Positions 1 through 46,427 of a DNA stretch of 50,338 nucleotides are shown in pieces. The notes beneath the pieces were generated by a model that was not told the DNA's origin, did not search any database, and worked only from the letters and a program-made list of their open reading frames with translations. The DNA is from Paracoccaceae bacterium. GTDB lineage: Bacteria > Pseudomonadota > Alphaproteobacteria > Rhodobacterales > Rhodobacteraceae. The first letter of the stretch is position 1; every line of letters starts with the position of its first letter. The position numbers and the translations under genes are program-made. Location of the stretch: contig JALSGY010000424.1 in assembly GCA_026982515.1 (NCBI GenBank), positions 1 through 50,338 on the forward strand. The letters run 5' to 3'.

Positions 1-127
1 TCGATGGCGTCCCACATGACCTCGCGCACGAAGCCGCCGATCTGGCGGAAGCAGTCCACGCGATAGAATTTCGTCATCCCGACCGACATCTCATCGCCGC
101 ATTTTTCCGAAACCATCCGCCCCGAGG
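1..127. repeat. Terminal overlap, copy 1 (identical to 50212..50338); circularisation signature
   Basis: I compared 1..127 with 50212..50338 base by base and found them identical, both running from tcgatggcgtcccacatgacc to ccatccgccccgagg. The overlap lies inside one continuous reading frame. Confidence 0.9.
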
Positions 128-536
128 CCGCCTTGAAATAGGGCTTGCCCGAACAGGTGCCGATGCGCGGGTTGGCTTCCATCCGTTCGATCAGCCCGGC
201 GAAATAGCCGCTCGGCAGGTCAAGGTCGAGGTCGAGCTTGCACAGGTAGCTGAAGGTCTCCAGATCGACCGTGTCCAGCCCGGCATAGAAGGCCTCGATC
301 ACCCCCGGCCCGACGGCGCGGTGGCCGCGGTCGGGTTTTGGCACCACCCGGATCCAGTCATGGCGGGCGGCGTATTCGGCCAGGATCTGCGGCGTCTCGT
401 CGCTTGAGCCGTCATCGACGATGACCCACAGCGCCGGCGGCACCGTCTGGGCCACCACGCTGTCAAGCGTGCGGCGCATGTAGTCGGCCTCGTTGCGGCA
501 GGGCGAGATCAGGACATAGGCGTGGGGGTCAGGCAT
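1..536 (-). CDS. Family-2 glycosyltransferase, 5' (N-terminal) part of a gene that wraps the contig junction; GtrB/ArnC/DPM1-like polyprenyl-phosphate sugar synthase candidate
   Basis: ATG is the reverse complement of 534..536. The hand translation is MPDPHAYVLISPCRNEADYMRRTLDSVVAQTVPPALWVIVDDGSSDET...LDLDLDLP...SGKPYF. The frame stays open to base 1 and continues in frame into ORF 49824..50327 through the overlap. 536 + 388 unique nt = 924 nt, giving 307 aa plus stop. Confidence 0.8.
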   Translation of the reverse strand, partial: MPDPHAYVLISPCRNEADYMRRTLDSVVAQTVPPALWVIVDDGSSDETPQILAEYAARHDWIRVVPKPDRGHRAVGPGVIEAFYAGLDTVDLETFSYLCKLDLDLDLPSGYFAGLIERMEANPRIGTCSGKPYFKAASGRMVSEKCGDEMSVGMTKFYRVDCFRQIGGFVREVMWDAI

Positions 537-792: not shown

Positions 793-2397
793 GTGTCGAT
801 GATCAGTAACATGGCGCAGGTGCGCAGGCTTCCCCAGACATTCGCCACCTGGGGGATGTTCTGGCTGGTGGTGGCCGTGCTGGGGGCGCTTGCGTTCTTT
901 TCGGACGGGCTGCGCGCGCTGCTGGACGCCTGGCAGTTGCCGGAATACAGCCACGGGCCGCTGATCCCGGTGCTGTCGGCCCTGCTGTTCCTGCGCCAGC
1001 TGAAAACCGAACCGGTCGAGACCGGCCCGGTGCGTGACTACTGGCCCGGTATCGTGGTGTTGCTTGCCGCCCTGCTGATGGGGGCGCTTGGCCGGCTGGC
1101 CAATATTTCCGACATCGTGGCCTATGCGCTGATCCTGTGGGTCGGGGGCATCCTGCTGGTCAGTTTCGGCTGGAAGCAGGGCCGCCGGTTCTGGCCGCCG
1201 GTGCTGCACCTGATCTACATGCTGCCGCTGCCCGGGGTGGTCTATTACAAGCTGTCGACCTACCTGCAGTTCATCTCGTCCGAACTCGGGGTCTTTCTGC
1301 TGCAGTGGCTGCAGGTGCCGGTTTTCCTGGATGGCAACATCATCGACCTGGGGGTCTACAAGCTGCAGGTGGCCGAAGCCTGTTCGGGGCTGCGCTACCT
1401 GTTCCCGATCCTGAGCTTTTCCTACATCTTTTCGGTGCTCTACAAGGGGCCGATCTGGCACAAGGCGATCCTGCTGGTCTCGGCGGCGCCGATCGTTGTG
1501 GTGATGAACTCGGTGCGTATCGCGCTGGCCGGCTACATGGTGAACGCCTATGGCATCGAATGGGTCGAGGGGCTGAGCCACTTCTTCGAGGGCTGGGTGA
1601 TCTTCGTGATCAGCATCGTGATCCTGTTCATCCTGGCGCGCATCCTGCTGATCTTCCAGCCGGTGAAGATGAGCCTTGCGCAATCGCTCGACCTGGAAAT
1701 CGACGGCATCGGCACGCAGTTCATGCGCCTGCGCCTGGTGCAGGCCTCGACGGGGATGATCCTCGCCGCGGTGCTGATGGTGGGCGCCGCCCTGTCCTGG
1801 CAGTTGCTGCCGGAACGTGGCACGCAGATGGTGGAGCGCGCGCCGTTCAGCCTTTTCCCGCGCCAGTTGGGCGACTGGAAGCAGCGCGGACCTGCCCAGT
1901 CGCTCGAAGCAAGCGTGGTGGTTGTCCTGGGGGCCGATGATTATCGCTCGGTCACCTTTTCCAGGCCGGGCGCCGCATCCGATATCGGCCTGTTCATGGC
2001 CTGGTATGACGACCAGAGCCAGGGGGGCGTGCATTCGCCGGAAATCTGCCTGCCCGGCGGCGGCTGGGAAATTGCCTGGCTGGAACGCACCGACATCGCC
2101 GACAGGCTCGGGCGGCAGGAGCCGTTCAGCATCAACCGGGCGATCATCCAGAAAGGGGAAACCCGCATGATGGTCTATTACTGGTTCGATCAGAAGGGCC
2201 GCAAGATTGCCTGGGATTTCGCCGCCAAGTTCTGGCTGCTGGCCGACGGTATTGCCACCGGACGCACCGACGGGGCGCTGGTCCGGCTGACCACGCTGAT
2301 CGAACAGGGTGAGACCGATGCCCAGGCCGAGGCGCGCCTTCTCGACATGACGCGGGCCCTGCTGTCGCCGTTGCCGAAATTTATCCCGGCAGGGTAG
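793..2397 (+). CDS. xrtD: Exosortase fused to a C-terminal EpsI-family domain (XrtD-like, VPLPA-CTERM-type)
   Basis: The N-terminal half is polytopic and carries the exosortase catalytic motifs: Cys in AEACSGLRYLFP (TGT at 1381..1383), Arg in MNSVRIALAG and His in LSHFFEGW. The C-terminal ~190 aa carries the EpsI-like motif GGVHSPEICLPGGGWE. A VPLPA-CTERM protein is encoded on the same replicon. The start is uncertain (GTG 793, ATG 799 or ATG 811). Confidence 0.8.
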   Translation: MSMISNMAQVRRLPQTFATWGMFWLVVAVLGALAFFSDGLRALLDAWQLPEYSHGPLIPVLSALLFLRQLKTEPVETGPVRDYWPGIVVLLAALLMGALGRLANISDIVAYALILWVGGILLVSFGWKQGRRFWPPVLHLIYMLPLPGVVYYKLSTYLQFISSELGVFLLQWLQVPVFLDGNIIDLGVYKLQVAEACSGLRYLFPILSFSYIFSVLYKGPIWHKAILLVSAAPIVVVMNSVRIALAGYMVNAYGIEWVEGLSHFFEGWVIFVISIVILFILARILLIFQPVKMSLAQSLDLEIDGIGTQFMRLRLVQASTGMILAAVLMVGAALSWQLLPERGTQMVERAPFSLFPRQLGDWKQRGPAQSLEASVVVVLGADDYRSVTFSRPGAASDIGLFMAWYDDQSQGGVHSPEICLPGGGWEIAWLERTDIADRLGRQEPFSINRAIIQKGETRMMVYYWFDQKGRKIAWDFAAKFWLLADGIATGRTDGALVRLTTLIEQGETDAQAEARLLDMTRALLSPLPKFIPAG

Positions 2398-2423
2398 TTT
2401 ATCAACAAGGACTTTGGTATCGA

Positions 2424-3326
2424 ATGCCCAGTATCAGACCCTATTTTCGTGTGTTGCGGCCCCATCAGTGGCTCAAGAATGCCTTGGTGTTCCTGCCCTT
2501 GCTGGCAGCGCACCGGTTTGACGGCGGCACGCTTCTTGATGCCGGCCTTGCCTTCATCGCGTTCAGCCTTGTCGCCTCGAGCGTTTATGTCCTGAACGAC
2601 CTGGTCGACCTCGAAGCCGACCGGGCCCACCCGCGCAAGCGCAACCGCCCCTTTGCCTCGGGGGCAATTGCAACGTCCAGGGGGCTGCTTCTGGTGCTGG
2701 CGCCCCTGGGGGCCGGGGCTCTGGTTGCCGCGCTGCTGGGGCCATGGTTCGGCCTCGTGCTGTTCGGGTATTACGCCACCACGCTGGCCTATTCCTTCTT
2801 TCTCAAGCGGCGCATCGTGATCGACATCTGCGTCTTGGCCGGGCTTTACACCTTTCGCATCATTGCCGGCGGGGCGGCCACGGGCATCGAGATTTCCGTC
2901 TGGCTTCTGGCCTTTTCGGTTTTCTTTTTCCTGTCGCTTGCCGCCGTCAAACGCCAGGCCGAACTGGTTGACGGGGTGGCCAGCGGCAACCTGAAGGCCC
3001 ACGGGCGGGGCTACATCACCGATGACCTGCCGATCGTGGCCAACATGGCCATTTCCTCGGGTTATGTTTCGGTGCTTGTCATGGCGCTCTACCTCAATTC
3101 ACCGGACGTCGCGCGGCTTTATGCAACGCCGGTCCTGCTCTGGGGTATCTGCCTGGTGCTGCTCTACTGGCTGAGCCGGATGGTCCTGGTCACCCATCGC
3201 GGCCAGATGCACGATGACCCGGTGGTGTTTGCCGTCAAGGACCGGACCAGCCTGGTCTGCTTTGCCCTTGTGCTTGTCATTGCGCTGGCCGGGGCGTGGT
3301 CTGGAGAACTCCCTTTCTCGGGATAA
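2424..3326 (+). CDS. UbiA-family prenyltransferase, decaprenyl-phosphate phosphoribosyltransferase (DPPR synthase)-like
   Basis: 300-aa polytopic membrane protein with the Asp-rich motif YVLNDLVDLEADRAHPRKRNRPFASG, matching the UbiA NDxxDxxxD signature. It lies 26 bp downstream of the exosortase gene on the same strand. Confidence 0.7.
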   Translation: MPSIRPYFRVLRPHQWLKNALVFLPLLAAHRFDGGTLLDAGLAFIAFSLVASSVYVLNDLVDLEADRAHPRKRNRPFASGAIATSRGLLLVLAPLGAGALVAALLGPWFGLVLFGYYATTLAYSFFLKRRIVIDICVLAGLYTFRIIAGGAATGIEISVWLLAFSVFFFLSLAAVKRQAELVDGVASGNLKAHGRGYITDDLPIVANMAISSGYVSVLVMALYLNSPDVARLYATPVLLWGICLVLLYWLSRMVLVTHRGQMHDDPVVFAVKDRTSLVCFALVLVIALAGAWSGELPFSG

Positions 3327-3363: not shown

Positions 3364-4032
3364 CTAACCCCGGCCCCCGACATCCTCGGGCAAAGGCGCC
3401 CCCGAAGCGCGGGCCAAATGGGCCATCCGGCGCTGAAATTCCGCGTGGAAATCATGCTCTTTCGCAAACTGCGCGGCCTTCTGGCAGCGTGCCGCGATCT
3501 CTGCCCGGTCCCGGTCTGTTGCCGCGATACAAGACGCCAGCTTTTCCGGCTTGCCCAGGGGCGTCACCCAGCCGGCCCCGGACTCTCTGGACAGGTCCGC
3601 CCACATCCGGTTCCCGTAGCCGACAACGGCAAGACCGCAGCCCATGTTCTCGAGATAGGTGCAGGACGGGTCCGACTGCCGGTGACAGCACAGGTAGAGA
3701 TCTGCGTTCCGGCGCAGATGGGGAACCAGGACCGTGGCGAAATCCACGGGCTCATGCAACGTGACCTCGGCTTGCAGCCCGGCCTCGCGGATTGCGGCCG
3801 AAATCTGCTCCTGCAGGCTTCCGCTGCCAAATATGTCGAGCGTAAAGCGGAGACCCTGCGCGCGAAGCCGGCGCGCCACGGGAAGCAGGTCCTGCGCACC
3901 TTTCATGGGTTCAAGCCGCCCCGAATAAACCAGCCGAAGCGGCGCGCCATCAAGCAGGCGCCGTGTCTTGTCAGCCATCTCGGCCTGCGAAATGAAAAGC
4001 TCCGGAGACATCCTGTTGTCCAGATACATCAT
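3364..4032 (-). CDS. GT4/GT1-type glycosyltransferase, C-terminal Rossmann half only (possibly truncated or frameshifted)
   Basis: Shows C-terminal GT-B features: LRLVYSGRLEPMKGAQDLLPVA...DIFGSGSL...YLENMGCGLAVVGY. No ~170-aa N-terminal domain is encoded upstream. A short upstream ORF (MSKSKIINEYPRLLIIS...) sits in another frame. Confidence 0.55.
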   Translation of the reverse strand: MMYLDNRMSPELFISQAEMADKTRRLLDGAPLRLVYSGRLEPMKGAQDLLPVARRLRAQGLRFTLDIFGSGSLQEQISAAIREAGLQAEVTLHEPVDFATVLVPHLRRNADLYLCCHRQSDPSCTYLENMGCGLAVVGYGNRMWADLSRESGAGWVTPLGKPEKLASCIAATDRDRAEIAARCQKAAQFAKEHDFHAEFQRRMAHLARASGAPLPEDVGGRG

Positions 4033-4204: not shown

Positions 4205-5380
4205 ATGGCTTTTTTCGTGCAAAAACCGATCCCGAGGGGGATTCTCTGGCTTCTTTTCTTTTCATCCGTGCTTGCGGTGCTGTCCTTTCCCGTTGTGGCG
4301 CGGGCCTGGTTTGACTGGCTGAACGGCGGTAGCGACTGGCGCCAGGGGGACTGGCTGATCAACATGGGGTCCGGGTTCATCCGGCGCGGCCTGATGGGGG
4401 ACAGTCTCATCGCGCTCAGCGATGCAACCGGCTGGCCGCTGCTGGCGGTGGCCCAGCTCTTTCAGGGCCTGCTTTTCGTCATGCTGGTTTTCGTGGTCTG
4501 GCTCATCGGGCTGCTCTGCCCGAACCGCCGCCTGCTGGCGTTTCTTGCCGCCTCGCCGGCCATATTCCTGATCTTCTGGGCCGGGGATATTCAGGGCACG
4601 ATGCGCAAGGAGCTGTTTGGCCTTCTTGCCCTGGCGCTGCTGGCGCTCAACGGCATCTGCCGCTGGCGTGGTCCCGTGCTGCCGGTGGCGGCCGTCGTGC
4701 TGTTCACGCTTGGTTGTATCGGCAACATCCTGCATGTCTTCATGCTTCCGGCCCTGATCGCCGGGCTCTTGATGACCCGGGAGGCCGGGCTGATCTCCTC
4801 GCGCCAGTTTGCCGGCCTTGTCATCACGTCCCTGGCGATGAGCGCCCTCTGGATGGGCGTCGCGGTCTGGTTTCGGGAAGTGCCCGAACTGACAGGCATG
4901 TGCGCCCGCCTCGTGGCCCGGGGGCTGGACAAGGACATCTGCGGCGGGGCGATCGGCTGGACAGTTGCCGGCAATATCGATCACGCCTCCGAGCTTTCAC
5001 TGAAACTGACGGCCGGGGCGCTGAAGCGTTATGTCATCGTGGCCGCCCTGTGCATGCTGCCGGTGGCGCTGAGCTTTCGGTTCTTTGCCGAACGCCGGGA
5101 TCTGGCCATTCTTGCCGCGATCACCTTTCTGCCCCTGCTGCCGCTTTATGGCGTGGCAACCGACTGGGGGCGCTGGATCAGCATTTCCTATACGGCCTGG
5201 GCGTTGTTGCTGTTGCAGGGTCATGCCTCGGGCCGGTTCACGCTTTTGAAGACACCCCCCACGGGGCTGATTGCCGGGTTGCTCCTGCTGGCGCTCGTGA
5301 TCTCTCCCGAACACGGGATCGGCTGGCAACCGGGCGGGGCGGTGCGCTCGGTCCTGGCCGCGGCGCAGGACTTTCGCTGA
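4205..5380 (+). CDS. Polytopic inner-membrane protein of unknown function (possible polysaccharide polymerase or membrane GT)
   Basis: 391 aa, mostly successive hydrophobic segments (LWLLFFSSVLAVLSFPVV, LLFVMLVFVVWLIGLL and others). Composition is coding-like, whereas the antisense ORF 4262..4984 is Arg/Pro/Gly-rich. Confidence 0.6.
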   Translation: MAFFVQKPIPRGILWLLFFSSVLAVLSFPVVARAWFDWLNGGSDWRQGDWLINMGSGFIRRGLMGDSLIALSDATGWPLLAVAQLFQGLLFVMLVFVVWLIGLLCPNRRLLAFLAASPAIFLIFWAGDIQGTMRKELFGLLALALLALNGICRWRGPVLPVAAVVLFTLGCIGNILHVFMLPALIAGLLMTREAGLISSRQFAGLVITSLAMSALWMGVAVWFREVPELTGMCARLVARGLDKDICGGAIGWTVAGNIDHASELSLKLTAGALKRYVIVAALCMLPVALSFRFFAERRDLAILAAITFLPLLPLYGVATDWGRWISISYTAWALLLLQGHASGRFTLLKTPPTGLIAGLLLLALVISPEHGIGWQPGGAVRSVLAAAQDFR

Positions 5381-5395: not shown

Positions 5396-6283
5396 CTACC
5401 GCGCAAACCGCTCTTTGGTCAGCGCGATGAAGCTGCGCACCGTATCCAGCCCGGCTTTTTCCTTTTCTTCAAGCATGCCGAGAACCTTGTCGCGCGTGGC
5501 CAGGGCATGCCCGGCATCTTCGATGCCATAAGCCACGCCATAGCGATACAGATCATGCTGGGCGGCCCATTCCTCGCGCGAGGCATGTTCGCCGGGCACC
5601 ACGATGCTCAGGCACCCGCAGATCGCCGCATATTGGGAATACATCGTCGCTTCGTCATAGGAATAGAACACCTCGCAACGATTGAAGATGTCGTTGATCT
5701 CGGCCGGCCCGAGATCATCGATGCAAATGGCGCCGGGCACTTCGGTTTCGGGGATGCGCTCCTTGTAGGCGCCCTTGCGCAAAAGATAGCAGACGCCCGA
5801 GCGGTCGGGCCGGTTTTCATTGCGATAGATCCGGTTGATCTTCCAGAGGAACAGCTCGGGGGCGCCCCCGGTCAGTTCTGGCAGGTCGGCTTTCTCGAAT
5901 GCCCGGAAAAACAATTCTCCCTCGGTGAATTCATAGGGGTGGCGTTCGCCGGGCTTGTAGAGCAGCCAGCGGGCCACATGCCTTGCCTGCAACGGGTTTC
6001 CCGGAACGATTTCCGGATAAACGACGATCGTTTTTTCATCGATGTCGGACCTGCGTGCAACCGGTGTGTCAAGCTGCGGGTTGCACTGGAACGGCGGCGG
6101 GAAGATCCGGTTGAAAATCCGGTTGTGGAATCTCTGCCTGAAAATGGGTTTCATTGGCCAGAGATATGCCTGCTCTCCAAGCGTGTTCAGGGCATGCACA
6201 AGCTCATGCAGAAAGATGGTCCCGCCGCTGTCCGCAGTAAAAGACGGTGCGTAGACAATATATTTGACCGAACTGTCAGACAT
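5396..6283 (-). CDS. Hypothetical protein, weakly GT-B-like
   Basis: 295 aa with balanced soluble-protein composition. The N-terminus KYIVYAPSFTADSGGTIFLHELVHAL and the C-terminal CEVFYSYDEATMYSQYAAICGCLSIVVPGE resemble GT-B donor-binding motifs. I recognise no clear family. Confidence 0.5.
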   Translation of the reverse strand: MSDSSVKYIVYAPSFTADSGGTIFLHELVHALNTLGEQAYLWPMKPIFRQRFHNRIFNRIFPPPFQCNPQLDTPVARRSDIDEKTIVVYPEIVPGNPLQARHVARWLLYKPGERHPYEFTEGELFFRAFEKADLPELTGGAPELFLWKINRIYRNENRPDRSGVCYLLRKGAYKERIPETEVPGAICIDDLGPAEINDIFNRCEVFYSYDEATMYSQYAAICGCLSIVVPGEHASREEWAAQHDLYRYGVAYGIEDAGHALATRDKVLGMLEEKEKAGLDTVRSFIALTKERFAR

Positions 6284-6428: not shown

Positions 6429-7505
6429 TCACGTTGCACGATGCTCCAGAAGTCTTTCGATATCCTCCGCGATCCGGGTATCGGTCAGGGCGCACATATC
6501 CGGGTGGGTCGGAAAATTCACCATCTGCGCGTGCAGTTCCCGGACCCGCGCCAGAGGCGCCAGCGGTTCATACTGGCGGGCGATGTCGACATGGTTTGTC
6601 GGCGCCGTGGCTGTTGCCTCGACAGGGGCGCCAAACAGGATCGGCAGGCTGGTTGTCGGGGGCGCCCCGTCAACGGGCAGCAACGAAGACAGCCCGAAGC
6701 CGGCGCTGATGTCCAGAACGCGTTGGCGCTGTTCCATGTAAGCCGGTTCCCACTGGCCGGCGCGCCGCAGCCGGGCAATCAGGAAGGCGCAGGAAATATC
6801 GGAAATCTTGCCATTGTTCAGCCAGTGGGACGGATCAGACGGAGCCTTGTCATAATTGATCAGCAGGCGCAGGAACTCCCGGGATTCGGCGGGGGCCAAT
6901 GCCAGGCCCCCCTCACCCATGCCATAGGGTTTCGTGTGGTGCAGGCTGAAGGCCTGCCATGGCCAGTCCGGAACATGGCGGTCGATGCCTGCGGCATTGT
7001 CGATCAGCAGTTTTTTCCCGGTGGCCCTGGCAAACCGGATGAAATCTTCGAAACCGCTGTGCATGCCGAATGGATTGGTGACAACGATCCCGTCGTAACT
7101 GTCCGGCGGAAGCTTTTCGAGCGCGGCAAGATCGAGAACGCCGCGCCGGTCGCAATCCAGAAACGTCATGTCGGCGAAATAGCCGCGTCCGAGGTTCTTG
7201 AAGCTGAACGCCGAGCCGACCCAGCGCAGCGCGGGCTTGCCGGCCTCGGCCGCCAGCGCCCGCGCCAGCAGCTCCAGAGCGATGCCGCCGTTTGCGCAGG
7301 GGGTCAGCGCAACACCGGCCGGAAGGTTCATGTGTTCTGCATATTCGGCCGCCAACCGATCATGGAGCGGGCCGAAATTGGCCCAGTGGTTCACGGCGCG
7401 GCACTCATCAAGCAATGCGTCAACCAGATCCATGTCAGGCTGCTTGGCTTCAATGAATTTCACTCGTCTGGAGCCGACGATCGGCTCTCGGGCAGCAAAG
7501 TTCAT
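6429..7505 (-). CDS. DegT/DnrJ/EryC1/StrS-family PLP-dependent sugar aminotransferase
   Basis: I chose the internal ATG at 7503..7505 (MNFAAREPIVG...), which has an upstream GGAAGGA-like RBS. The longer track ORF adds an Arg/Gly/Pro-rich extension. Family-like segments include NFGPLHDRLAAEYAEHM and SLHHTKPYGMGEGG, whose Lys would be the PLP lysine. Confidence 0.7.
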   Translation of the reverse strand: MNFAAREPIVGSRRVKFIEAKQPDMDLVDALLDECRAVNHWANFGPLHDRLAAEYAEHMNLPAGVALTPCANGGIALELLARALAAEAGKPALRWVGSAFSFKNLGRGYFADMTFLDCDRRGVLDLAALEKLPPDSYDGIVVTNPFGMHSGFEDFIRFARATGKKLLIDNAAGIDRHVPDWPWQAFSLHHTKPYGMGEGGLALAPAESREFLRLLINYDKAPSDPSHWLNNGKISDISCAFLIARLRRAGQWEPAYMEQRQRVLDISAGFGLSSLLPVDGAPPTTSLPILFGAPVEATATAPTNHVDIARQYEPLAPLARVRELHAQMVNFPTHPDMCALTDTRIAEDIERLLEHRAT

Positions 7506-7624
7506 GGCAGCATTCCCTTTTCCTTCCCTCTTGCGCAGGTCTCGCCTCCCTTGTCCGGCTCCCTTGTCCGGCTGCCCTGCAGCGCCGCGCCAAAGCCCCC
7601 CCTTCGGCCGGCCATGAAGGCCGT

Positions 7625-8425
7625 TTACGTCCCCAGTTTCTGCCCTGACCGCCCCCGGCTGCGCAGGGCCGTCCAGACCAGTTGCGGCAAAATGGCAATA
7701 CAGGCCCCGTAACGCCCCGCCAGCCGGCCGGGGCTGGTGGCCAGGCGCCACAACCATTCGACAGCCAGCAGGCGCGCCAGTTTCGGCGCCCGGGTCTGGA
7801 CGCCAGAAATGAAGTCCAGCCCCGCCCCGATCGACAGGAACCCCGTTTCGGGCAGCTTTTCCTGCGCCAGCGCGGCGAAAATTTCCTGCTTCGGGGCGCC
7901 AAGCGCCAGAAAGACCAGCCGCGCGCCGGCCGCCTGCAGCTGTGCAATGGCCTCCTGCCCCTGCTCGCCGGTCGGGTCAAACCCCATGGGTGGCGCGATA
8001 CGGGCCACCACGTGCAGCCCCGGATAACGTGTGCTCAGAACGCGCTCGGCTTGCGCCAGAGAGGCTTCGGTCGACCCCAGAAACGCCACCGGCACCCCCA
8101 GGCTCGCGGCCACGTCCGCCACCGGGTCGACCAGGTCGGCCCCCGGCACAAGGTCCACCTTCTGGCCGGCCAGCCGGGACAGCCAGACAATCGGGTTGCC
8201 ATCGGCGGTGACATGGCTGTGGCGCAGATAGGCGTCGCGAAACATCGACAGGCTGCGAAGCTTCACGACATGATCCAGGTTCAGCGTTGCCACCGAAAAC
8301 CCCCGCCTGGTGCGCAGCCGCGCCTCCAGATCGGCCAGCAGCGCATCGCGCGAACTGACATTGACTGACAATTCAGCATCCGCTTTCACGGCGCTGTCCA
8401 TACCTGTACCGGACCAATTGATCAT
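7625..8425 (-). CDS. WecB/TagA/CpsF-family (GT26) glycosyltransferase
   Basis: Family-typical segments are present: ATLNLDHVVKL, VTADGNPIVWLSRL, FLGSTEASLAQA, VFLALGAPKQEIF, GAGLDFISG and EWLWRL. The start is uncertain (ATG at 8425 or 8401; the ORF is open to 8533). Confidence 0.75.
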   Translation of the reverse strand: MINWSGTGMDSAVKADAELSVNVSSRDALLADLEARLRTRRGFSVATLNLDHVVKLRSLSMFRDAYLRHSHVTADGNPIVWLSRLAGQKVDLVPGADLVDPVADVAASLGVPVAFLGSTEASLAQAERVLSTRYPGLHVVARIAPPMGFDPTGEQGQEAIAQLQAAGARLVFLALGAPKQEIFAALAQEKLPETGFLSIGAGLDFISGVQTRAPKLARLLAVEWLWRLATSPGRLAGRYGACIAILPQLVWTALRSRGRSGQKLGT

Positions 8426-8591
8426 CCCGTTTCCCCAATTACCCGACCAGCGACAATGACGCCGGTCCCCTCTCGCAGATTGCTTCAGCTTTTCTTCAGA
8501 TTTCAACGTAGCCGGAGTCGGGTTTTGCCCCAAACACGCTCACCGCACCAAATCAATCAACTCTGGTTCAATCAATTTCAGGTCTTCGACC

Positions 8592-8626
8592 CAAAATGAA
8601 GAAGAATCCGCCTGGAGGCGGAGATT
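8592..8626 (-). terminator. Candidate rho-independent terminator downstream of repA
   Basis: Stem tccgcc (8607..8612) / ggcgga (8617..8622) with a 4-nt loop. On the minus strand it is followed by the T-rich run ttcttcttcatttt. It lies about 55 nt past the repA stop. Confidence 0.35.
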
Positions 8627-8677
8627 CCGGGTCCATTGTTTCTGTTTTCAGCCCAATTCGCAACCAGCAAAATGATT

Positions 8678-9697
8678 TTACCGGCCCCGCTCCGCGCGCC
8701 CCTTCACCCAGCCAAGAAACGCACGATCCGGGGCGCCAAGGCGCGGCTTGCCGGAACTGGCCCACCAGGCGCGCCATTGGGCTTCCAGCGCATAGACATC
8801 GGCGCCCGGCAGCAGGGCGCGCGCGTCCTCCAGCGTTTCGGGCCGCAGTTGCGGGGCTTCGGCCGCATCGACCACCACGGCGCGGCGGCTGATGCGGATG
8901 ATGTCGCCCGCTTCCTCGCTCAGGGTGTAATCGGGCAGGCTGTCGGCGCGGATGATCTCGCGCACCATGGCGCGAAACACCCGGCGCGGGCTGACAGAGC
9001 CCGATTTCTTCAGCAGCGTGCTCACCGACACGCGCCAGTCAGGCTGGCGGCCGCAATGTTTGCGCGCCAGTTCATACAGCCGGCGCTCAAGCGGGCGGCG
9101 CAGGTTGAAATAGTCTCTGTTCAAGGTCAAAACCGACTTTGACAGCACCGCGCGATACAGCCATTCCGACAGGGTGACCGACACCGACACCATGCGCCCG
9201 GCGCGGGTCTTGCGCACGATCTCCCAGCTTTCGATCAGCCCGAAACCGGTGGTCACTTCATCCTCGCCGGTGACGATATTGGTGGTGATGCGGGTGCCGG
9301 CCAGGCGTTCGAAGGCGTCGCGCAGCCGCCGGTAGCTGTCGCCCGAGGTTTCGCGCCCGGTCGCCAGCAGCAGGTCATGGGCGGTCAGCGTCAGCCGGCG
9401 CGAGGTCTTGCGCCCGGCATTGAGCGCGGCCATCAGCTGGCTGATGCAGAAGATCAGGATATCGGCGTCAAAGATCGTCGCCCGCCCCTTGACGCTTGGC
9501 GTGATGGTGATCGAGGCGGCGTTGTGCTCATAGCGCAGGATGCGCCGGTCGGGGCGGGTCGACAGCGAAAAGATCGGGTGTTCCATCGAGGCCAGATCAT
9601 GTTTGGGCACCGCACCGAAGAAATCGCAGACGAAGAAATCGCGGCTGGCGGCCGCCCTGCCCTGTCCTGTGCCCTGTCCTGCAACCCCCCCCGTCAC
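8678..9697 (-). CDS. repA: Plasmid replication initiator protein A (RPA/RepA family of Rhodobacterales RepA-type plasmids)
   Basis: Contains DFFVCDFFGAVPKHDLASMEHPIFSLSTRPDRRILRYEHNAASITITPSVKGRATIFDADILIFCISQL, typical of replication initiator protein A. The ORF is open to a TTG at 9937, but that extension would contain the DnaA box and iterons, so I place the start at GTG 9695..9697. The start remains uncertain. Confidence 0.75.
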   Translation of the reverse strand: MTGGVAGQGTGQGRAAASRDFFVCDFFGAVPKHDLASMEHPIFSLSTRPDRRILRYEHNAASITITPSVKGRATIFDADILIFCISQLMAALNAGRKTSRRLTLTAHDLLLATGRETSGDSYRRLRDAFERLAGTRITTNIVTGEDEVTTGFGLIESWEIVRKTRAGRMVSVSVTLSEWLYRAVLSKSVLTLNRDYFNLRRPLERRLYELARKHCGRQPDWRVSVSTLLKKSGSVSPRRVFRAMVREIIRADSLPDYTLSEEAGDIIRISRRAVVVDAAEAPQLRPETLEDARALLPGADVYALEAQWRAWWASSGKPRLGAPDRAFLGWVKGRAERGR

Positions 9698-9783
9698 GCG
9701 CCCTGCCCCTGCCTGTTTTCTGCCCGGTAATCCCGTTTGGTGATCCCGTTTCGGGATTCGTTGTTTCAGTGACACCTTGGTAG

Positions 9784-9792
9784 TTATCCACA
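9784..9792 (+). promoter_or_regulatory. DnaA box, perfect consensus TTATCCACA
   Basis: The sequence ttatccaca is read directly at 9784..9792. Confidence 0.6.
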
Positions 9793-9814
9793 GGGGCCGC
9801 GTCCAGCCCGGTGA

Positions 9815-9874
9815 TCGGGGGATCAGAGTCGGCTTCTCGGGGGTTCGGAATCGCTTTATCGGGGGTTCAGAGTC
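9815..9874 (+). repeat. Three iteron-like direct repeats with 22-bp phasing
   Basis: TCGGGGGATCAGAGTC starts at 9815, TCGGGGGTTCGGAATC at 9837 and TCGGGGGTTCAGAGTC at 9859. The start-to-start spacing is exactly 22 bp. Confidence 0.6.
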
Positions 9875-9942
9875 ACCCGGGCCTGAAAAAGTTGCGAAAA
9901 CCCCTTGTTCTTCCGTGGCTTGCCTGAACCACGCCAATCCCG

Positions 9943-9990
9943 TAACTGATAAGTAACATCAGATAACAGGCCGGTTTTTTTCTTTCGGGT
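9943..9990. other. AT-rich tract (candidate DNA-unwinding element)
   Basis: The sequence taactgataagtaacatcagataacaggccggtttttttctttcgg is much more AT-rich than its surroundings. It contains the ctgat/atcag inverted repeat and a T7 run. Confidence 0.4.
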
Positions 9991-10119
9991 TCCCCAAACC
10001 CCGCTTTCCCCCCGAAAAGGCGGGAATTTGCTTGGAAAACACAGGGTGTGTTCGACGCTTCTTCCCATGTCCCACCTTTTGTGCTACATCGCTCAAAACG
10101 CATAACATCGAGGGTCGGC

Positions 10120-11505
10120 ATGAGCAGCGAAGATCTTCCTCCGTATTTCAACATATCGCCGGATGCAGCCCTGGCCGAGCTTGACCCGCCAACCGGCACC
10201 GCCGGGTTCGGGCAGATCGCCGCCGCCTGCCAGCGCGGGCGCGACGACCTGGCGGGGCGAGGTCTGGACGAAAGCGGCGCGCGCAAGCTGCGGCTGTTTT
10301 CGACCTGGGAAATCACCAAATACCTGATCCCGGTGGCGCCGGCCCATTTCCGCCGCGTGCTGCGCCAGAACCCCGACCTGCCGCAGGGGCGCAGCGAAAC
10401 CGAAGGCGGCGCCAAGTGGTTCACGCTTGACGAGGTGCTGCGCCTGCGGGCGCATTTCGCCAGCCAGGGCTCGAAGGCCAAGGGCTACCTGCCCTACCGC
10501 CCCAAGGGCCAGCCCGCCAAGATCGTGGCGCTGGCCAATTTCAAGGGCGGGGTCGGCAAGACCTCGACCTGCGCGCATCTGGCGATGTCGGCAGCGCTCG
10601 ACGGCTACAGGGTGCTGATGATCGACCTCGACAGCCAGGGCTCGATGACCTCGATCTTCGGCGGGCGGGTGGAGGACGAATGGGGCACGGTGTTTCCGCT
10701 GCTGGCACGCCACTACGGCGAAACGCTGCAGGCCGACAACCAGCGCCGGCTGGACCGCGGCGAGGCCCCCCTGCCCCTCGATGACACGCTGTCAGAGGCG
10801 CTCAGGCTGCGCTCGCAGGACGTGATCGCCAAGACCCACTGGCCCAACATCGACCTGATCGGCGCGCAGCTGAACCTTTACTGGTCCGAGTTCCAGATCC
10901 CGGTATGGCGCATGCAAAGCCGCGGCTGGAAGCTGTGGGACGCGCTCAGCGGGGTGCTGGAGGCCGATGGCGTGCTCGATGAGTATGACATCGTGTTTCT
11001 CGACACGCCCCCTGCCCTTGGCTACCTGACGATCAACGGGCTGGCGGCGGCCGACATCCTGCTGGTGCCGGTTGGCGCGTCGTTTCTGGAGTTCGATTCG
11101 ACGGGGCGGTTCTTCGACATGCTGCACGCGACATTCGCCTCAATCGAAGACGGCGAAAACACCGCCGCGCGCGCCCTGGGCCGGCCCGAGATGGGTTTTG
11201 AATGGGATGCGGTGCGCGCCATCGTGACCCGGTTCGACGCCAGCCAGCAGGCCGAGATGGCCGGGCTGATGCAGGCCTACCTGGGGCGCACGCTCAGCCC
11301 CTACCGGCAGGATTTCACCGCGCTGATCGGCCAGGCCGGGGAAAGCGTGAACGGGATCTACGAAGCCGACTACCGCGATTTCAACCGCGAGACCTACGCC
11401 CGCGGCCGCGCCACGTTTGATGAAACCTATGCCGCGTTCAAGAAGCTTCTGGTCGGGATCTGGCGGCGCGATGAACTGGCGGCGCAGCAGGCGGCGGCCG
11501 AGTAA
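10120..11505 (+). CDS. parA: ParA-family partition ATPase
   Basis: Deviant Walker A motif ANFKGGVGKTSTCAHLA. ATG at 10120 is preceded by GAGGG. It is followed by parB and lies divergent from repA. Confidence 0.85.
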   Translation: MSSEDLPPYFNISPDAALAELDPPTGTAGFGQIAAACQRGRDDLAGRGLDESGARKLRLFSTWEITKYLIPVAPAHFRRVLRQNPDLPQGRSETEGGAKWFTLDEVLRLRAHFASQGSKAKGYLPYRPKGQPAKIVALANFKGGVGKTSTCAHLAMSAALDGYRVLMIDLDSQGSMTSIFGGRVEDEWGTVFPLLARHYGETLQADNQRRLDRGEAPLPLDDTLSEALRLRSQDVIAKTHWPNIDLIGAQLNLYWSEFQIPVWRMQSRGWKLWDALSGVLEADGVLDEYDIVFLDTPPALGYLTINGLAAADILLVPVGASFLEFDSTGRFFDMLHATFASIEDGENTAARALGRPEMGFEWDAVRAIVTRFDASQQAEMAGLMQAYLGRTLSPYRQDFTALIGQAGESVNGIYEADYRDFNRETYARGRATFDETYAAFKKLLVGIWRRDELAAQQAAAE

Positions 11506-11589
11506 AACAAGGCGCGCAACCGGGCAGGGGCGGGGAAATTCCAGAGATGGCTCAGAAAAAATCTTATTTTTCAATGACTTGTTCCTGCG

Positions 11590-12814: not shown

Positions 12815-15800
12815 TCAGGCGGCCGCTTCGGCAATCAGCAGATCATTCGAATAGATCTCGGTCGGCAGATCGTCGCTGAGGGTCTCATGGCCCGCAGTCA
12901 GCGCCTCCCAGAGCGCCGCCGCCTCGGGTGAGTCCATGTCGGTCTCTGTGCCAACCGTGGACAGCGAGGCCGCGCCGCTGCCGCTGCCGGGGGCCGTAAG
13001 CTGCACGGTCAGCGTGTCAGTGGCATAGTCGATGACCAGATGCGCATCCTGGTTGCCGGACAGGCCAATGAGGCGGATGTCGCTGAGTTCGCCGACCAGT
13101 TCGTCGACCGAGATCAGCTCATATGTTCCGGCGGCAAGGCCCGCGACATCAAGTTCGAGCGTGCCCAGCCCCAGGTTGACGCCCGATGCGATGTCGGGGT
13201 TGTCGCCCATGGCGCCGGTGCGGAATTCCTCGATGGTCGAGAAGCCGCCGGCATCGGCGTCGAAGGACAGGGTGCCGCCGTCGTCCAGCCGCAGCACGCC
13301 GGTATCGCCCTGCGTGCCGTCAAAGCCGACGCTGGCCGCGCTGCCGTCGATGTTCAGGCTGGCGCCGGCTTCGACATCGTATGTGGCCCCGTCGGTTGCC
13401 AGCACGGTCTGGCCGTCGCTGATGTTCATCTGGACATTGCCGTCGACGGTGCCGGTGTTCACGAAGCGCCCGCCGTCGACGTCGATGGTCAGCCGGTCCT
13501 GGTCGCTGTAGCCGTTCATCCAGACCTGGCCGACATTGGAAATATCGAAGTGGCCACCATTGGCCCCGGCCTGGGTCACGCCGTCGATGTTCAGCCGGCC
13601 ATGGGTCACGTTCAGCTCTCCGCCCGATCCGAAATCGAAATCCGCGATCGTGGTGGTGCCGCCGTAGTTGACGATGTTGCCGCCCAGATCGACACTATCG
13701 CCGGCAACAGAGCCGGGCAGATCGTCGCTCGACCAGTTGATCTGATTGTCCCAGCGGATGCCGTCACCCAGATCATTGGGAATGAAACGCAGGGTTTCCG
13801 GGCTGAGCCGGTCGCCCGGGCTGAGGCCGAACCCGACCTGAAAGAAGTCGATGATCAGGTCGGCATCGACATAGTCATCCAGCGAGCCGTCGGCCTGGGC
13901 ACGCAGGAAAGCGGCCAGTTCCGGGATGCCGGCATTCGGGTCGCCCAGAAGCTGCTGGGTGAAGATCTGAATGGTCGTGGCATTGAGCACCGAGGTATCG
14001 AGACCGTCGACATTCTGATCGTCCAGGTTGGGGTCATGGCCCCATTGGGCCTGTCCGCTGCCGACCCAGTTGTAGATGATCGTGTCGTTGTAGAACGGGT
14101 TTTCCTGGTTGCTCAGAGGATAGTTGGAACCCGACTTGGCTGCGATTTCCGCCGGGTTGTTCGGATCGGCAAGGTGGGCGATGATGTTGTCCAGCAGGGT
14201 GGAATCCATCCCGGCATTGCGCACGCCCTCGGCCAGGTAGCCGATGCCGGCTGCCGTTTCCTTGTATCCGGCCGAAGTGATCAGGTTGTCGGAGAACTGG
14301 GTGTAGTTCCCGACAAAACCGGTGCCCTCGAACTCACCTCCGGTGAAGTCCACCGCGGCGTTGTTGTCGAGGAAGACGTTGCTTTCGATAAGGCCGCCGC
14401 TGCGGATGTGGGCGCCGAACATCGAGCCCTGCATCGTGATGTTGTCGCGGAAGGTGACGTCGGTGTTGTCCCAGTCGATGTAGAAGTTGTGATTGAACAT
14501 CGTCGGGGACTGGCCGCCGCTGGTGGACTGGTTGAACTGGTAGTCCGGGGCCCAGCCATTCTGATCGAAAAGCGAGCCTTCGACCAGCACACTGTCACTG
14601 TTGCCGATAAAGCCGCCGGAGGTCATGAGACCGCCACCCGGCCAGGAGCCGGCGCCATCGGGATGCACTGTCCGGAAGACATCGATGATCGAAGAGTCAT
14701 GCAGGGTGAAGCCCTGGGCATTCTGGACGACAAGCCCCATCACGTTGTCATGGGTGACGGTGGTGTTGGTGATGTCCACATTGTCCAGCATCAGGTTCGT
14801 GCCGCTGAGCGCATAGACGCCCCCGGTCACGAAAAGGTCGCTGACGACGATATTTTCGTTTCCGCCGCCCCAGGGCGACAGCGAGATGCTGGTGTTCAGA
14901 ACCGGTTTTGCGCCATCGCCGTAAGCCGTGATATGGACCGGATGCATCGGGTCTTCGCCCATTGTTCCGTCGTCAATGACCGCGCCGAGGTTGTCGTATT
15001 CAAAGCCGCGCTCGAACAGCAGCCAGTCGGAAGACGGAGCGTTCCCGCTGCCGGTCATCCCGTACCAGAGCCGCATCCCGGCCTCGCTGTCGAGCGCCAT
15101 GTCGGGTACGCTGCCATAGTCCGGGTGGGCCTGGAGCCAGTCGGCCGTGATCTGGTTGACGTCCAGCCCCTCGAGGGCCGCGATGTCATTCAGGCTCAGG
15201 GCGTCGTTGCTGCCCGAGATGTAGACTTCGCGGTGATTGTCGCCGGCCTCGACGATAACGTCGCCGTTTGCATCGGTTTCCAGCATGTAGACATTGCCTT
15301 GAGCCCAGCCGGCACCCTGGGTCGGCTGCAGGACGTCGACCGTATTGCCAAAGGATTGCGTGGTGCCGTCCTGGTAGGTGACCTCATAGCTGAAGCTCAG
15401 CTGGCCGCTGTAGTTTTCACCGCTCATGACCAGGGCCAGCGTGTTGTCGGGGTTGACCGAAAGGTGGCCGTATGCCGGCTGCCCGGTGATGCGCACCGAG
15501 TCTATGGAGTCGGCGTTGTCGAGGCGCAGGGTGGTTACCCGGCCGCCGGCGACATCGACACCATTTGACAGCTGTGTCGCCGCGACGCCGCCACCGTTGC
15601 TGGTATCGGTCAGCTGTTCCGGCGCAGTCGGGTCGGGGTTGCTTGGCGCCGGCGGGGTGGGGTCGGTCGGCGGGGTGGGATCGGTCGGTTGCGGATCGGG
15701 TGAACCGGTGTTGGGGTTCGGGGCCGGATCCGGCGTCGGATCGGTCGGCGCAGGATCGGGATCTGGCGCGGGGTCCACCGGGTCGGTCGGCTGCCATGGC

Positions 15801-15988
15801 TCTTCCGGATCGGGATCGACCGGGACAATGACCTCCGTGGGCCCCACGGATGGCTGCGGGGGCTCCTTGTCATTGTTGAAGGCCGTTGGTGCCGGATCTT
15901 CGGAACTGGCTTCGGAGGCCGAATTTCGGCCGAAGGCAGTCCCCAGGACAAGCACTCCGAGCAGAGAAAAGAGCAAGTAGATCATCAT
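12815..15988 (-). CDS. Large secreted or anchored surface protein: N-terminal signal/anchor, P/T/D-rich stalk, Ig/cadherin-like segment, right-handed beta-helix region, repetitive C-terminal beta-rich region
   Basis: The N-terminus MMIYLLFSLLGVLVLGTAFG is hydrophobic. Residues ~56-125 are a Pro/Thr/Asp low-complexity stalk. The centre has beta-helix-like repeats (NIVVSDLFVTGG, NLMLDNVDITNT, FRDNITMQGSMFGAHIRSGGLIESNVFLDNNA). The C-terminal third is Gly/Asp/Val-rich repeats. Confidence 0.75.
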   Translation of the reverse strand: MMIYLLFSLLGVLVLGTAFGRNSASEASSEDPAPTAFNNDKEPPQPSVGPTEVIVPVDPDPEEPWQPTDPVDPAPDPDPAPTDPTPDPAPNPNTGSPDPQPTDPTPPTDPTPPAPSNPDPTAPEQLTDTSNGGGVAATQLSNGVDVAGGRVTTLRLDNADSIDSVRITGQPAYGHLSVNPDNTLALVMSGENYSGQLSFSYEVTYQDGTTQSFGNTVDVLQPTQGAGWAQGNVYMLETDANGDVIVEAGDNHREVYISGSNDALSLNDIAALEGLDVNQITADWLQAHPDYGSVPDMALDSEAGMRLWYGMTGSGNAPSSDWLLFERGFEYDNLGAVIDDGTMGEDPMHPVHITAYGDGAKPVLNTSISLSPWGGGNENIVVSDLFVTGGVYALSGTNLMLDNVDITNTTVTHDNVMGLVVQNAQGFTLHDSSIIDVFRTVHPDGAGSWPGGGLMTSGGFIGNSDSVLVEGSLFDQNGWAPDYQFNQSTSGGQSPTMFNHNFYIDWDNTDVTFRDNITMQGSMFGAHIRSGGLIESNVFLDNNAAVDFTGGEFEGTGFVGNYTQFSDNLITSAGYKETAAGIGYLAEGVRNAGMDSTLLDNIIAHLADPNNPAEIAAKSGSNYPLSNQENPFYNDTIIYNWVGSGQAQWGHDPNLDDQNVDGLDTSVLNATTIQIFTQQLLGDPNAGIPELAAFLRAQADGSLDDYVDADLIIDFFQVGFGLSPGDRLSPETLRFIPNDLGDGIRWDNQINWSSDDLPGSVAGDSVDLGGNIVNYGGTTTIADFDFGSGGELNVTHGRLNIDGVTQAGANGGHFDISNVGQVWMNGYSDQDRLTIDVDGGRFVNTGTVDGNVQMNISDGQTVLATDGATYDVEAGASLNIDGSAASVGFDGTQGDTGVLRLDDGGTLSFDADAGGFSTIEEFRTGAMGDNPDIASGVNLGLGTLELDVAGLAAGTYELISVDELVGELSDIRLIGLSGNQDAHLVIDYATDTLTVQLTAPGSGSGAASLSTVGTETDMDSPEAAALWEALTAGHETLSDDLPTEIYSNDLLIAEAAA
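15614..15823 (-). repeat. Coding low-complexity repeat (PTDP/PDPAP-type stalk)
   Basis: Encodes PVDPDPEEPWQPTDPVDPAPDPDPAPTDPTPDPAPNPNTGSPDPQPTDPTPPTDPTPPAPSNPDPTAPE. The DNA shows reiterated gggtcggtcgg-like units. Confidence 0.8.
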
Positions 15989-24080: not shown

Positions 24081-24083
24081 GCG

Positions 24084-25112: not shown

Positions 25113-25113
25113 A

Positions 25114-40031: not shown

Positions 40032-40214
40032 CCCGGCCCCGATGAGATCGGGCCATTTCGGCCCATGATGCGATGACGGGTGCCAGAATGGCGGATTATT
40101 CGTCAAACCCGGACAATTACCCATGTTTCAGCCCCCAGGACGTTGTTTTCTCGCTTCTCCCGAACAGATATCGTAAGGGCTTGCCGAAGGTATCCGCGGG
40201 ATGAAGCTGACATC

Positions 40215-44116: not shown

Positions 44117-44360
44117 CCAAGGGGCCTCTTTTCAGGACGGGCGAAACAGACGAAAGTCGCTGCACCCGGGTCATTTTCTTGTTGAGGAACACCCGCTTGT
44201 CCCTGCGCTCTGCCCCCCATCGCGCGGTGCATACACCAAAGCTTGACCATTGTCATCAAAGCTGAGGGCCTCGTGTTGACGGGGAAAAATGCCCGTCGGA
44301 AACGGCCTTGGTTCGCTTTTGCCGGCCTGGGCTATATTCTTTTCTTGGCCAGAGGTAGAT

Positions 44361-46265: not shown

Positions 46266-46427
46266 GAAACAGTCCCCGCCCAGAGGGGTCGGCACGGCTT
46301 TACTCCGCAAGCGCGCATCGGCATAGAGGGCCGGTAGTTCTTGAGGGGTCCGGCCTGTGGTCTTCGGTTTCAACATATCTGCAGACATCATTCCCCCGGT
46401 GGCCCGCCTCGGCGGCCGGCGCCTCTG

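Follow-up and report, generated by a model that had tools for sequence, protein, structure and literature searches.

A predicted phosphatase-less polyprenyl-phosphate phosphoribosyltransferase gene directly downstream of xrtD on an exopolysaccharide plasmid of a Rhodobacterales-like bacterium

What does a gene for a membrane enzyme of the UbiA superfamily do immediately behind an exosortase gene? The question is raised by the 50,338 bp stretch analysed here in full (contig JALSGY010000424.1, "the window" below), a RepA/ParAB plasmid of a Rhodobacterales-like bacterium whose DNA comes from a hydrothermal-vent metagenome. The original prediction for this locus took the gene at 2424..3326 for a relative of mycobacterial decaprenylphosphoryl-5-phosphoribose (DPPR) synthase that primes lipid-linked pentofuranose. 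We consider it probable that the gene encodes a polyprenyl-phosphate phosphoribosyltransferase lacking the phosphoribose phosphatase (PRP) domain of its family, and that the enzyme feeds periplasmic ribofuranosylation of the exopolysaccharide (EPS) made by the plasmid, through glycosyltransferases of the GT-C fold. The elements in question are:

793..2397 (+): xrtD, VPLPA-CTERM-specific exosortase with a fused EpsI domain; the gene upstream of UbiA
2398..2423 (+): spacer between xrtD and UbiA, exactly 26 bp by direct reading, both genes on the same strand
2424..3326 (+): UbiA gene, predicted PRP-less polyprenyl-phosphate 5-phosphoribosyltransferase (PPPRS; DPPR-synthase-like, UbiA superfamily)
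2595..2663 (+): cytoplasmic loop motif NDLVDLEADRAHPRKRNRPFASG, invariant in 125 family members; N58 and D62 are Mg2+ and phosphoribosyl pyrophosphate (PRPP) ligands and K72 and R75 pyrophosphate ligands as mapped from N73, D77, K87 and R90 of Rv3806c

The open reading frame (ORF) begins with ATG and encodes 300 aa; its GC content at third codon positions (0.78) is coding-like for a replicon with 63% GC, and the start is backed by close homologs that open MPSIGPYF... or MPSPKSYF... with the same methionine. Several hydrophobic 19-aa windows are spread across the protein, the motif NDLVDLEADRAHPRKRNRPFASG is aa 58-80 and the NDLVDLEAD loop within it aa 58-66. As for the upstream gene, the xrtD product scores 642 bits with TIGR04152 (cutoff 400), it matches Pfam Exosortase_EpsH and DUF3485, and its TAG stop codon is at 2395-2397. 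An AAGGA Shine-Dalgarno sequence lies ~12 nt 5' of the UbiA ATG, and no + strand promoter or terminator pattern was found in the 26 bp spacer; the two genes are likely co-transcribed across this junction, on which a search for RNA-seq data returned no runs. On re-reading the sequence, the ~300-aa frame, the motif and the 26 bp same-strand gap after the exosortase gene were all as originally described.

To which branch of the superfamily does the protein belong? Pfam has only a generic family for it (PF01040, 80.9 bits against a gathering threshold of 34.2). The sole NCBIfam model above its cutoff is NF006088 (PRK08238; 422.4 bits, cutoff 351), and this match is confined to profile positions 191-480 of 482; the N-terminal HAD-type PRP domain of that profile (~190 aa) is not present. 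The DPPR-synthase equivalogs NF008976, NF008977 and NF008978 rank next with 131, 148 and 162 bits (cutoffs 474, 234 and 207). The NCBIfam models for heme O synthase (44 bits, cutoff 210), UbiA (30, cutoff 275), ChlG (26, cutoff 313), homogentisate and GGGP enzymes stay at 16-55 bits where 180-350 would be required. In the PDB, only Mycobacterium tuberculosis Rv3806c matches (8J8J; E 2.5e-33, 44.9% identity over 176 aa), and the weakest tblastn plasmid matches that bear a specific annotation are all called "decaprenyl-phosphate phosphoribosyltransferase".

The active site points the same way. In Rv3806c the PRPP, Mg2+ and decaprenyl-phosphate residues are R22, K28, Y70, N73, D77, K87, R90, Q135, Y138, K143, Y157 and K191 (PMC10994848), and these 12 cover the pyrophosphate, ribose, 5-phosphate, Mg2+ and lipid-phosphate contacts. 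Alignment to Rv3806c finds 11 of the 12 identical in the UbiA protein: R12, K18, Y55, N58, D62, K72, R75, Y123, K128, Y142 and K176 correspond to R22, K28, Y70, N73, D77, K87, R90, Y138, K143, Y157 and K191, respectively, and all 11 are invariant across the 125 family members. The twelfth, Q135, is T120 here and Thr family-wide. Because true prenyltransferases do not share the residues that bind phosphoribose (PMC10994848) and this protein has them, PRPP is its likely donor. It is thus well supported at the sequence level that the protein would belong to the known class of PRPP-dependent polyprenyl-phosphate phosphoribosyltransferases, as a PRP-less offshoot of a HAD-fused family. The DPPR-synthase label of the original prediction stands insofar as Rv3806c is the only PDB relative and shares 11 of 12 residues, but the protein fails all three equivalog cutoffs and is a member of NF006088; the accompanying expectation that it would lie outside the quinone and heme clades was borne out, since none of those models exceeds 55 bits and no such enzyme is among the PDB matches. 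The enzyme type, then, is already known, and what is unusual is the missing phosphatase domain and the place right after an exosortase gene.

Is the missing domain peculiar to this plasmid? Typical NF006088 members have 455-495 aa and carry Pfam HAD domains plus UbiA. The window protein shares the short form with 17 protein clusters (70-91% identity), and the members are all 291-314 aa long; the short form is monophyletic in a neighbour-joining tree rooted with Rv3806c, and the pairwise ratio of nonsynonymous to synonymous divergence (dN/dS) within it is 0.04-0.10, with dS near saturation. Because the short form is one clade under purifying selection, the loss of the HAD domain is an established, selected state and not decay. 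Judged from these sequences, the UbiA protein is descended from the HAD(PRP)-UbiA fusion family and has lost the phosphatase domain. A scan of species-representative genomes found no relative above 68% identity, so that those representatives do not include the lineage that hosts the short clade, and the metagenome scan added one short-clade member above 70% (in locus L096); the frequency of xrtD adjacency therefore rests on seven close contexts. These and three more distant ones (related loci carry L numbers; identities are to the window UbiA protein) are arranged as follows:

Window: xrtD, 26 bp gap, UbiA
L095 (91%): UbiA divergent from a homolog of the GT-C protein win419 (below); xrtD ~8 kb off
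L178/L179 (82%): UbiA, a homolog of the membrane protein win391 (below) 43 bp downstream, then a homolog of win295 (below)
L006/L007 (81%): xrtD, UbiA, DegT, GT2, GtrA, acetyltransferase
L003 (77%): xrtD, UbiA, convergent short-chain dehydrogenase/reductase (SDR) and GMC oxidoreductase
L176 (75%): xrtD, UbiA, LPG_synthase_TM
L096 (74%): xrtD absent
L108 (61%): xrtD, 536-aa membrane protein, short UbiA, GT4
L009 and L110 (61-63%): short UbiA, GtrA, DprE1-like, DprE2-like

The fragment that precedes UbiA in L178 is something other than XrtD, and neither the window nor the other loci retrieved contain a match to it.

What the family as a whole does can be read from its neighbours. We compared 160 related loci (80 from species-representative genomes and 80 from metagenomes), with these counts:

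HAD domain fused to UbiA: genome 77/80, metagenome 72/80, total 149/160
DprE1-like gene downstream: genome 60/80, metagenome 44/80, total 104/160
DprE2-like gene downstream: genome 58/80, metagenome 34/80, total 92/160
GtrA: genome 47/80, metagenome 30/80, total 77/160
XrtD nearby: genome 1/80 (L052, adjacent), metagenome 1/80 (a distant XrtD-like gene, 30% identity, 7.6 kb off)

Annotated loci of Rhizobium etli and Cereibacter have the order UbiA, GtrA, FAD oxidoreductase, SDR, followed by large membrane proteins and GT87, and xrtD-type plasmids of Rhodovulum have HAD-UbiA with GT39 alone downstream and no epimerase. From these recurrent neighbours and annotated examples the NF006088 family is, by context, a proteobacterial lipid-linked pentofuranose donor synthase. 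Beside the PPPRS gene of two loci, L003 (10951..13315) and L180 (Rhizobium sp. CCGE531, 6891..11589), a GMC-family FAD oxidoreductase and an SDR/NAD-dependent oxidoreductase replace DprE1/DprE2; the two may form an alternative oxidase/reductase epimerase pair for lipid-linked pentose.

Several characterized systems provide a frame for the window gene. In Citrobacter youngae, ORF15 consists of an N-terminal HAD phosphoribose phosphatase and a UbiA-type domain and makes polyprenyl-P-ribofuranose from PRPP (Kelly et al., PNAS 2024, PMC11127046); once flipped, this product feeds a GT-C enzyme in a three-component pentofuranosylation system, and auxiliary epimerases (ORF13, DprE1/E2) turn the ribose donor into xylofuranose or arabinofuranose (Araf) (PMC11127046). 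The supplement of the same paper lists Rhizobium sp. CCGE531 plasmid pRCCGE531b as a candidate system, and there we find a 480-aa homolog, 40% identical to the UbiA protein, beside oxidoreductases, an SMR transporter and a large hypothetical protein. The C. youngae O1 enzyme (compared by its described architecture) shares with ours the UbiA-type membrane domain with an NDxxDxxxD loop, and its family shares the GT-C partners and optional epimerases; the HAD+UbiA architecture is common to NF006088 members, whereas the window protein lacks the N-terminal HAD/PRP domain. The C. youngae system also differs in its partners: in the window no MATE flippase or GT136-type partner was identified, and the partners are PMT_2/ArnT-like GT-Cs plus an unclassified membrane protein. 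Of the parts of the three-component system, the PPPRS gene and a GT-C partner are thus present in the window, and a dedicated flippase and a means of 5-phosphate removal were not found.

Rv3806c resembles the window protein in length (302 against 300 aa), in having no fused phosphatase and in the 44.9% identity given above. It differs in that the window protein lies under the DPPR equivalog cutoffs, has Thr in place of Q135 and presumably uses a C55 rather than a C50 lipid; the window gene has no adjacent Rv3807c-type phosphatase, Rv3789/GtrA or DprE1/E2, and its product is predicted to serve EPS decoration, Rv3806c arabinan synthesis. NoeC, of the Nod-factor D-arabinosylation operon noeCHOP/noeCNHOP (likened here by description), and the PPPRS of Pseudomonas aeruginosa pilin arabinosylation are likewise proteobacterial DPPR-synthase homologs that prime lipid-linked pentofuranose donors, but those systems have DprE1/E2-type epimerases, of which the window has none, and they make Araf, with Nod factor and pilin as acceptors in place of the EPS predicted here. 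The nearest plasmid parallels are those of Rhodovulum sulfidophilum and Rhodovulum sp. MB263 (AP014803, NZ_CP020386), which are of the same replicon type as the window, rep_cluster_252 RepA plasmids with EPS genes (xrtD was seen on AP014803), and encode a UbiA homolog 64-65% identical to ours with a GT-C gene directly downstream and no epimerase. Their UbiA proteins, however, are full-length HAD fusions (478-481 aa) encoded ~8 kb from xrtD, and their GT39 partner is unrelated by BLAST to the window GT-Cs.

Which steps does the plasmid itself supply after the first? A tblastn search of the whole window (E<=0.01) found no DprE1-, DprE2-, GMC-, HAD-, GtrA- or partner-SDR-like sequence, and Pfam and NCBIfam scans of the larger window ORFs found no phosphatase domain, so the lack of an epimerase pair and phosphatase noted in the original prediction is correct. 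Because there is no epimerase on the plasmid, the predicted donor is ribofuranose unless the chromosome supplies epimerases. The missing phosphatase appears tolerable in light of two precedents: the ORF15 D18A mutant still yields some ribofuranose product (PMC11127046), and deletion of noeN, a putative phosphatase gene, only lowers Nod-factor arabinosylation (PMC5080398). Removal of the 5-phosphate may be host-encoded. As for export, the replicon has a single flippase candidate:

40080..41591 (+): Wzx-type flippase of the MOP superfamily (Pfam Polysacc_synt_3, 158.8 bits)

It is probably the flippase of the EPS repeat unit, and to have it export lipid-linked pentose as well would be speculative.

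The transferases that could use such a donor are better represented, with three candidates in the window:

48425..49684 (-): win419, GT-C fold glycosyltransferase (ArnT/PMT_2-like), ~1.4 kb upstream of xrtD when the circle is closed; may be a user of lipid-linked pentose
37424..39037 (+): win537, second GT-C homolog, assigned by profile
4205..5380 (+): win391, 391-aa polytopic membrane protein; tentative GT-C-like pentofuranosyltransferase

BLASTP detected no significant similarity between these three membrane proteins and the Rhodovulum GT39; as it lacks the sensitivity needed for GT-C proteins, structures were predicted and profiles compared instead. The AlphaFold2 (AF2) model of win419 (pLDDT 94.8) has 21 PDB matches at E<1e-3, all of them GT-C enzymes, including ArnT (5f15, 1.3e-5), STT3, PglB, AglB, Pmt4 and EmbA/B. 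Its D41-E42 pair after the first transmembrane segment (TM1) is invariant, its homologs are annotated ArnT/GT39, and they directly adjoin UbiA genes in L095, L037, L075 and L074. For win537, hhalign against the win419 family gives 96.3% probability (E 1.6e-9) with the acidic motif after TM1 included; a homolog lies 3.2 kb from the UbiA cassette in L049, a weaker one (E 1.3e-15) beside the HAD-UbiA gene in L044, and further ones in L060 and on the R. sulfidophilum plasmid. The two GT-C candidates already named in the original prediction thus hold, win419 by fold and win537 by hhalign, but its partner list overlooked the most tightly linked one, win391. The AF2 model of win391 (pLDDT 95.1) has AftD as its top PDB match (6w98, E 5e-3, prob 1.0), followed by ALG12, ALG3, STT3 and ALG9, and D49 after TM1 is invariant. 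Its homologs come right after UbiA or after DprE2 in L178/L179, L054, L049, L055, L097 and L101 and just upstream in L053, so that no other partner is linked to the UbiA gene as consistently as win391; homologs of win391 or win419 stand beside UbiA genes in many unrelated loci. We regard win391 as a probable GT-C-like transferase. Pfam search of win391 gave no match, nor did PDB profile searches with the win419 and win537 alignments.

The closeness of win419 to xrtD depends on joining the ends of the window. The window proteins map to a 50,352 bp contig, and one GT2 gene, divergent from xrtD, runs across the junction:

49824..50338 (-): GT2, C-terminal part, running over the window end into 1..536
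1..536 (-): GT2, N-terminal part (Pfam GT2 on 3..536, -)

It does so in two overlapping frames with a 26-nt overlap; the 14 bp by which the source contig is longer may explain this break, and otherwise the GT2 gene is frameshifted. The synteny with relatives (PKD protein, AsnB, xrtD, UbiA) also crosses the junction. Because the GT2 gene and the synteny both span it, we take the window as a closed circle, and win419 then adjoins the xrtD-UbiA pair.

Taken together, the family placement, the conserved catalytic residues, the purifying selection, the gene neighbourhoods and the GT-C fold of the partner (in its model) are directly supported. We infer the use of PRPP, the identity of the lipid, dephosphorylation and flipping by other proteins, the acceptor glycan and co-transcription with xrtD. 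The pathway that we propose would run as follows. The enzyme, a Gram-negative counterpart of DPPR synthase, would move ribose-5-phosphate from PRPP to polyprenyl phosphate, presumably undecaprenyl phosphate, at the cytoplasmic face of the membrane; the 5-phosphate would be taken off by a host enzyme, or never. The donor, expected to be polyprenyl-P-ribofuranose as the plasmid has no epimerase, would then be flipped, and in the periplasm win419, win537 and probably win391 would add pentofuranose side chains to the Wzx/Wzy-type EPS of the xrtD plasmid. Several points weigh against this proposal. The UbiA protein is under the cutoff of all three DPPR-synthase equivalogs. The replicon has no phosphatase, no GtrA-, SMR- or MATE-type flippase and no epimerase, so three steps need other or host genes. 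The GT-C assignment of win391 is weak (best Foldseek E 5e-3), and with no profile link to win419 (hhalign 1.4% probability) the protein is not callable as GT-C on its sequence. Finally, chromosomal DprE1/E2 could change the sugar, the host chromosome lying outside the window, and the acceptor glycan is one that we infer.

The point about the sugar leads to the alternative that fares best, although we hold it unlikely: the enzyme would be the same, but chromosomal DprE1/DprE2-like, GMC/SDR or ORF13-like epimerases would turn its product into arabinofuranose or xylofuranose, and the plasmid would give only priming and transferases. The DprE1-like genes in 104 of the 160 family loci speak for it, as do the GtrA-DprE1-DprE2 sets of the short-form relatives L009 and L110, the GMC+SDR pair beside the short UbiA gene of L003 (with a GMC oxidoreductase also in the Rhizobium CCGE531 system), the location of the host chromosome outside the sequence examined, and the finding that ORF12-type GT-Cs can be donor-promiscuous (PMC11127046). 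However, the epimerase genes of relatives almost always adjoin the UbiA gene and none is in that slot here, and the Rhodovulum plasmids are a precedent for UbiA and GT-C pairs without an epimerase. Ribofuranose remains the sugar that we predict.

Could the neighbouring exosortase gene be the key instead? Lipid-linked ribose (or ribose-5-phosphate) might be needed for the XrtD pathway itself, to build or mark the glycan or glycolipid acceptor of the cargo or to glycosylate the cargo, a reading to which we give rather little credence. The direct order xrtD-UbiA is kept in 4 of the 7 contexts at >=74% identity (window, L006, L003, L176) even though the flanking genes all differ. Two further juxtapositions look independent: in L108 xrtD is followed by a membrane protein gene and a short UbiA gene, and in L052 (1437..7181, an uncultured Boseongicola metagenome-assembled genome) ManC, an NAD-dependent epimerase, HAD-UbiA and XrtD (48% identity) all lie in one direction, the last two in reverse order to that of the window; L052 is the only genome locus of the 80 in which a full-length PPPRS gene abuts an exosortase gene. 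Moreover, it is in the xrtD-linked clade that the HAD domain has been lost, and a gene for a VPLPA-CTERM cargo protein is present on the plasmid. On the other side, the closest relative (L095, 91%) pairs UbiA divergently with a GT-C gene and has xrtD ~8 kb off, L096 and L178 have no xrtD beside UbiA, and XrtD is adjacent in just 1 of the 160 family loci. Four annotated xrtD plasmids hold other genes in the slot after xrtD (a beta-helix protein, an unrelated CDS, a Tn3 transposase and a sulfotransferase, the last glycan-modifying too), and the literature holds no experimental work on XrtD or VPLPA-CTERM. Because exosortase genes are characteristically embedded in EPS loci (PMC1569441), an EPS-modifying gene next to xrtD is to be expected, and the economical reading is that the UbiA gene is one more variable EPS-decoration module; it is linked more tightly, and across more lineages, to GT-C genes than to xrtD. 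The suggestion in the original prediction that the sorted protein or its acceptor is pentofuranosylated, drawn from the adjacency, is accordingly not supported by an arrangement found in 4 of 7 close contexts, absent in the 91% relative and present once in the wider set, and a role of the UbiA protein in modifying exosortase cargo is speculation.

A more specific version seems to us quite improbable. According to it the short clade would have lost its phosphatase domain because of its recruitment to the xrtD operon, and the product, possibly polyprenyl-P-ribose-5-phosphate in place of polyprenyl-P-ribose, would give a pentofuranose(-phosphate) unit that the exosortase pathway needs; this unit might be the site, on EPS or a glycolipid, at which XrtD attaches the VPLPA-CTERM cargo. 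If true, this would offer a first chemical clue to the molecules that receive exosortase-sorted proteins.

The immediate surroundings of the gene bear on another possibility, that it is a decaying piece of a HAD-UbiA gene left by rearrangements that also cut the next gene, a GT4:

3364..4032 (-): truncated GT4, C-terminal Rossmann half only, between the UbiA gene and win391

This 222-aa fragment covers positions 210-384 of the 389 of the EpsE profile and has no space for its N-terminal half; since in L178/L179 the UbiA and win391 homologs that flank the fragment here are only 43 bp apart, it is probably, from sequence, a pseudogene or insertion remnant that marks a rearrangement. The N-terminal domain is indeed gone from the UbiA protein, and the pathway partners of its relatives are absent from the window. 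Decay is nevertheless very improbable and was dropped, given that at least 18 protein clusters share the short form in one conserved monophyletic clade with the low dN/dS reported above, and that the gene has an unbroken ORF, a start codon and ribosome binding site of its own, and catalytic residues that are all invariant. Least credible of all is an ordinary UbiA-superfamily enzyme for quinone, heme O, chlorophyll or aromatic prenylation, unrelated to glycans, which the generic PF01040 match and the automatic annotation of some homologs as "4-hydroxybenzoate polyprenyltransferase" might suggest but which is ruled out by the scores of those models, far under their cutoffs, the absence of any such enzyme from the PDB and plasmid matches, the conserved PRPP-specific K18, Y55, Y142 and K/R cluster, and a gene context that is consistently glycan-related.

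The rest of the plasmid is that of an EPS producer with its own sorting system. Its EPS genes encode Wzx, a Wzy-like protein, GT2, GT4 and WecG transferases, DegT, an NAD-dependent epimerase, a deacetylase and a methyltransferase, and it also carries a block like those of polyketide synthases (PKS) and nonribosomal peptide synthetases. XrtD and one VPLPA-CTERM cargo gene are both on the replicon. Other features are:

31965..32840 (+): VPLPA-CTERM cargo, predicted XrtD substrate (TIGR03370, 28.4 bits, cutoff 25.35), C-terminus ...SPVPLPAGFWLLLAGMGGFVLSGRMARRG...; its real start is probably the internal MGLKFLK... signal peptide
5396..6283 (-): win295, 295-aa soluble protein, convergent with win391
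6429..7757 (-): DegT, longest ORF (442 aa)
7625..8533 (-): WecG, overlapped by the DegT ORF by 133 bp
12815..15988 (-): 1,057-aa protein with a signal-peptide-like N-terminus and a faint tandem-95 repeat match
18781..31563 (-): PKS-like block, consisting of a phosphopantetheinyl transferase (18781..19455), a 1,542-aa formyltransferase/AMP-binding/luciferase-like monooxygenase/carrier protein (19452..24080), a GT2 (24084..25187) and a 2,149-aa type I PKS, KS-AT-KR-DH-ACP-TE (25114..31563)
44289..48392: PKD-domain protein and AsnB-type amidotransferase upstream of xrtD

The gene for win295 is co-conserved with that for win391 in L003 (16836..17717), L007 and L178/L179 (L178 2514..3392), always convergent. 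Its family (1,953 representatives at 50% clustering) is without a Pfam or PDB match and sometimes forms part of 600-1,200-aa multidomain proteins; the N-terminus of win295 has a GT-B-like "SGG" motif. A PDB profile search with the win295 alignment was blank too, and nothing supports win295 as the missing phosphatase. Homologs of DegT have 385-404 aa, and its true start is probably further downstream. The 1,057-aa protein has no Pfam family and no VPLPA-CTERM tail. The block at 18781..31563 suggests a lipid- or polyketide-modified glycan or glycolipid. The PKD and AsnB genes are likewise found upstream of xrtD in L003 (17..4022) and L006 (1..4092), and the PKD gene is also kept in L176 (545..2695). 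Asparagine-synthase-like amidotransferases associated with exosortases are known from PEP-CTERM loci.

If the proposed phosphoribosyltransferase does feed the plasmid's GT-C enzymes, PRPP-based periplasmic pentofuranosylation would be extended to the exosortase-type EPS plasmids of marine Rhodobacterales-like bacteria, for which a ribofuranose-decorated exopolysaccharide is predicted. The analysis further delimits a HAD-less subclade, derived from within the PRP-fused family, and singles out two uncharacterised membrane-protein families, those of win391 and win419, as candidate pentofuranosyltransferases. The recurrent xrtD-UbiA pair is a testable case for a link between glycan modification and exosortase sorting; if the two are unlinked, it would be ordinary variation of EPS loci.

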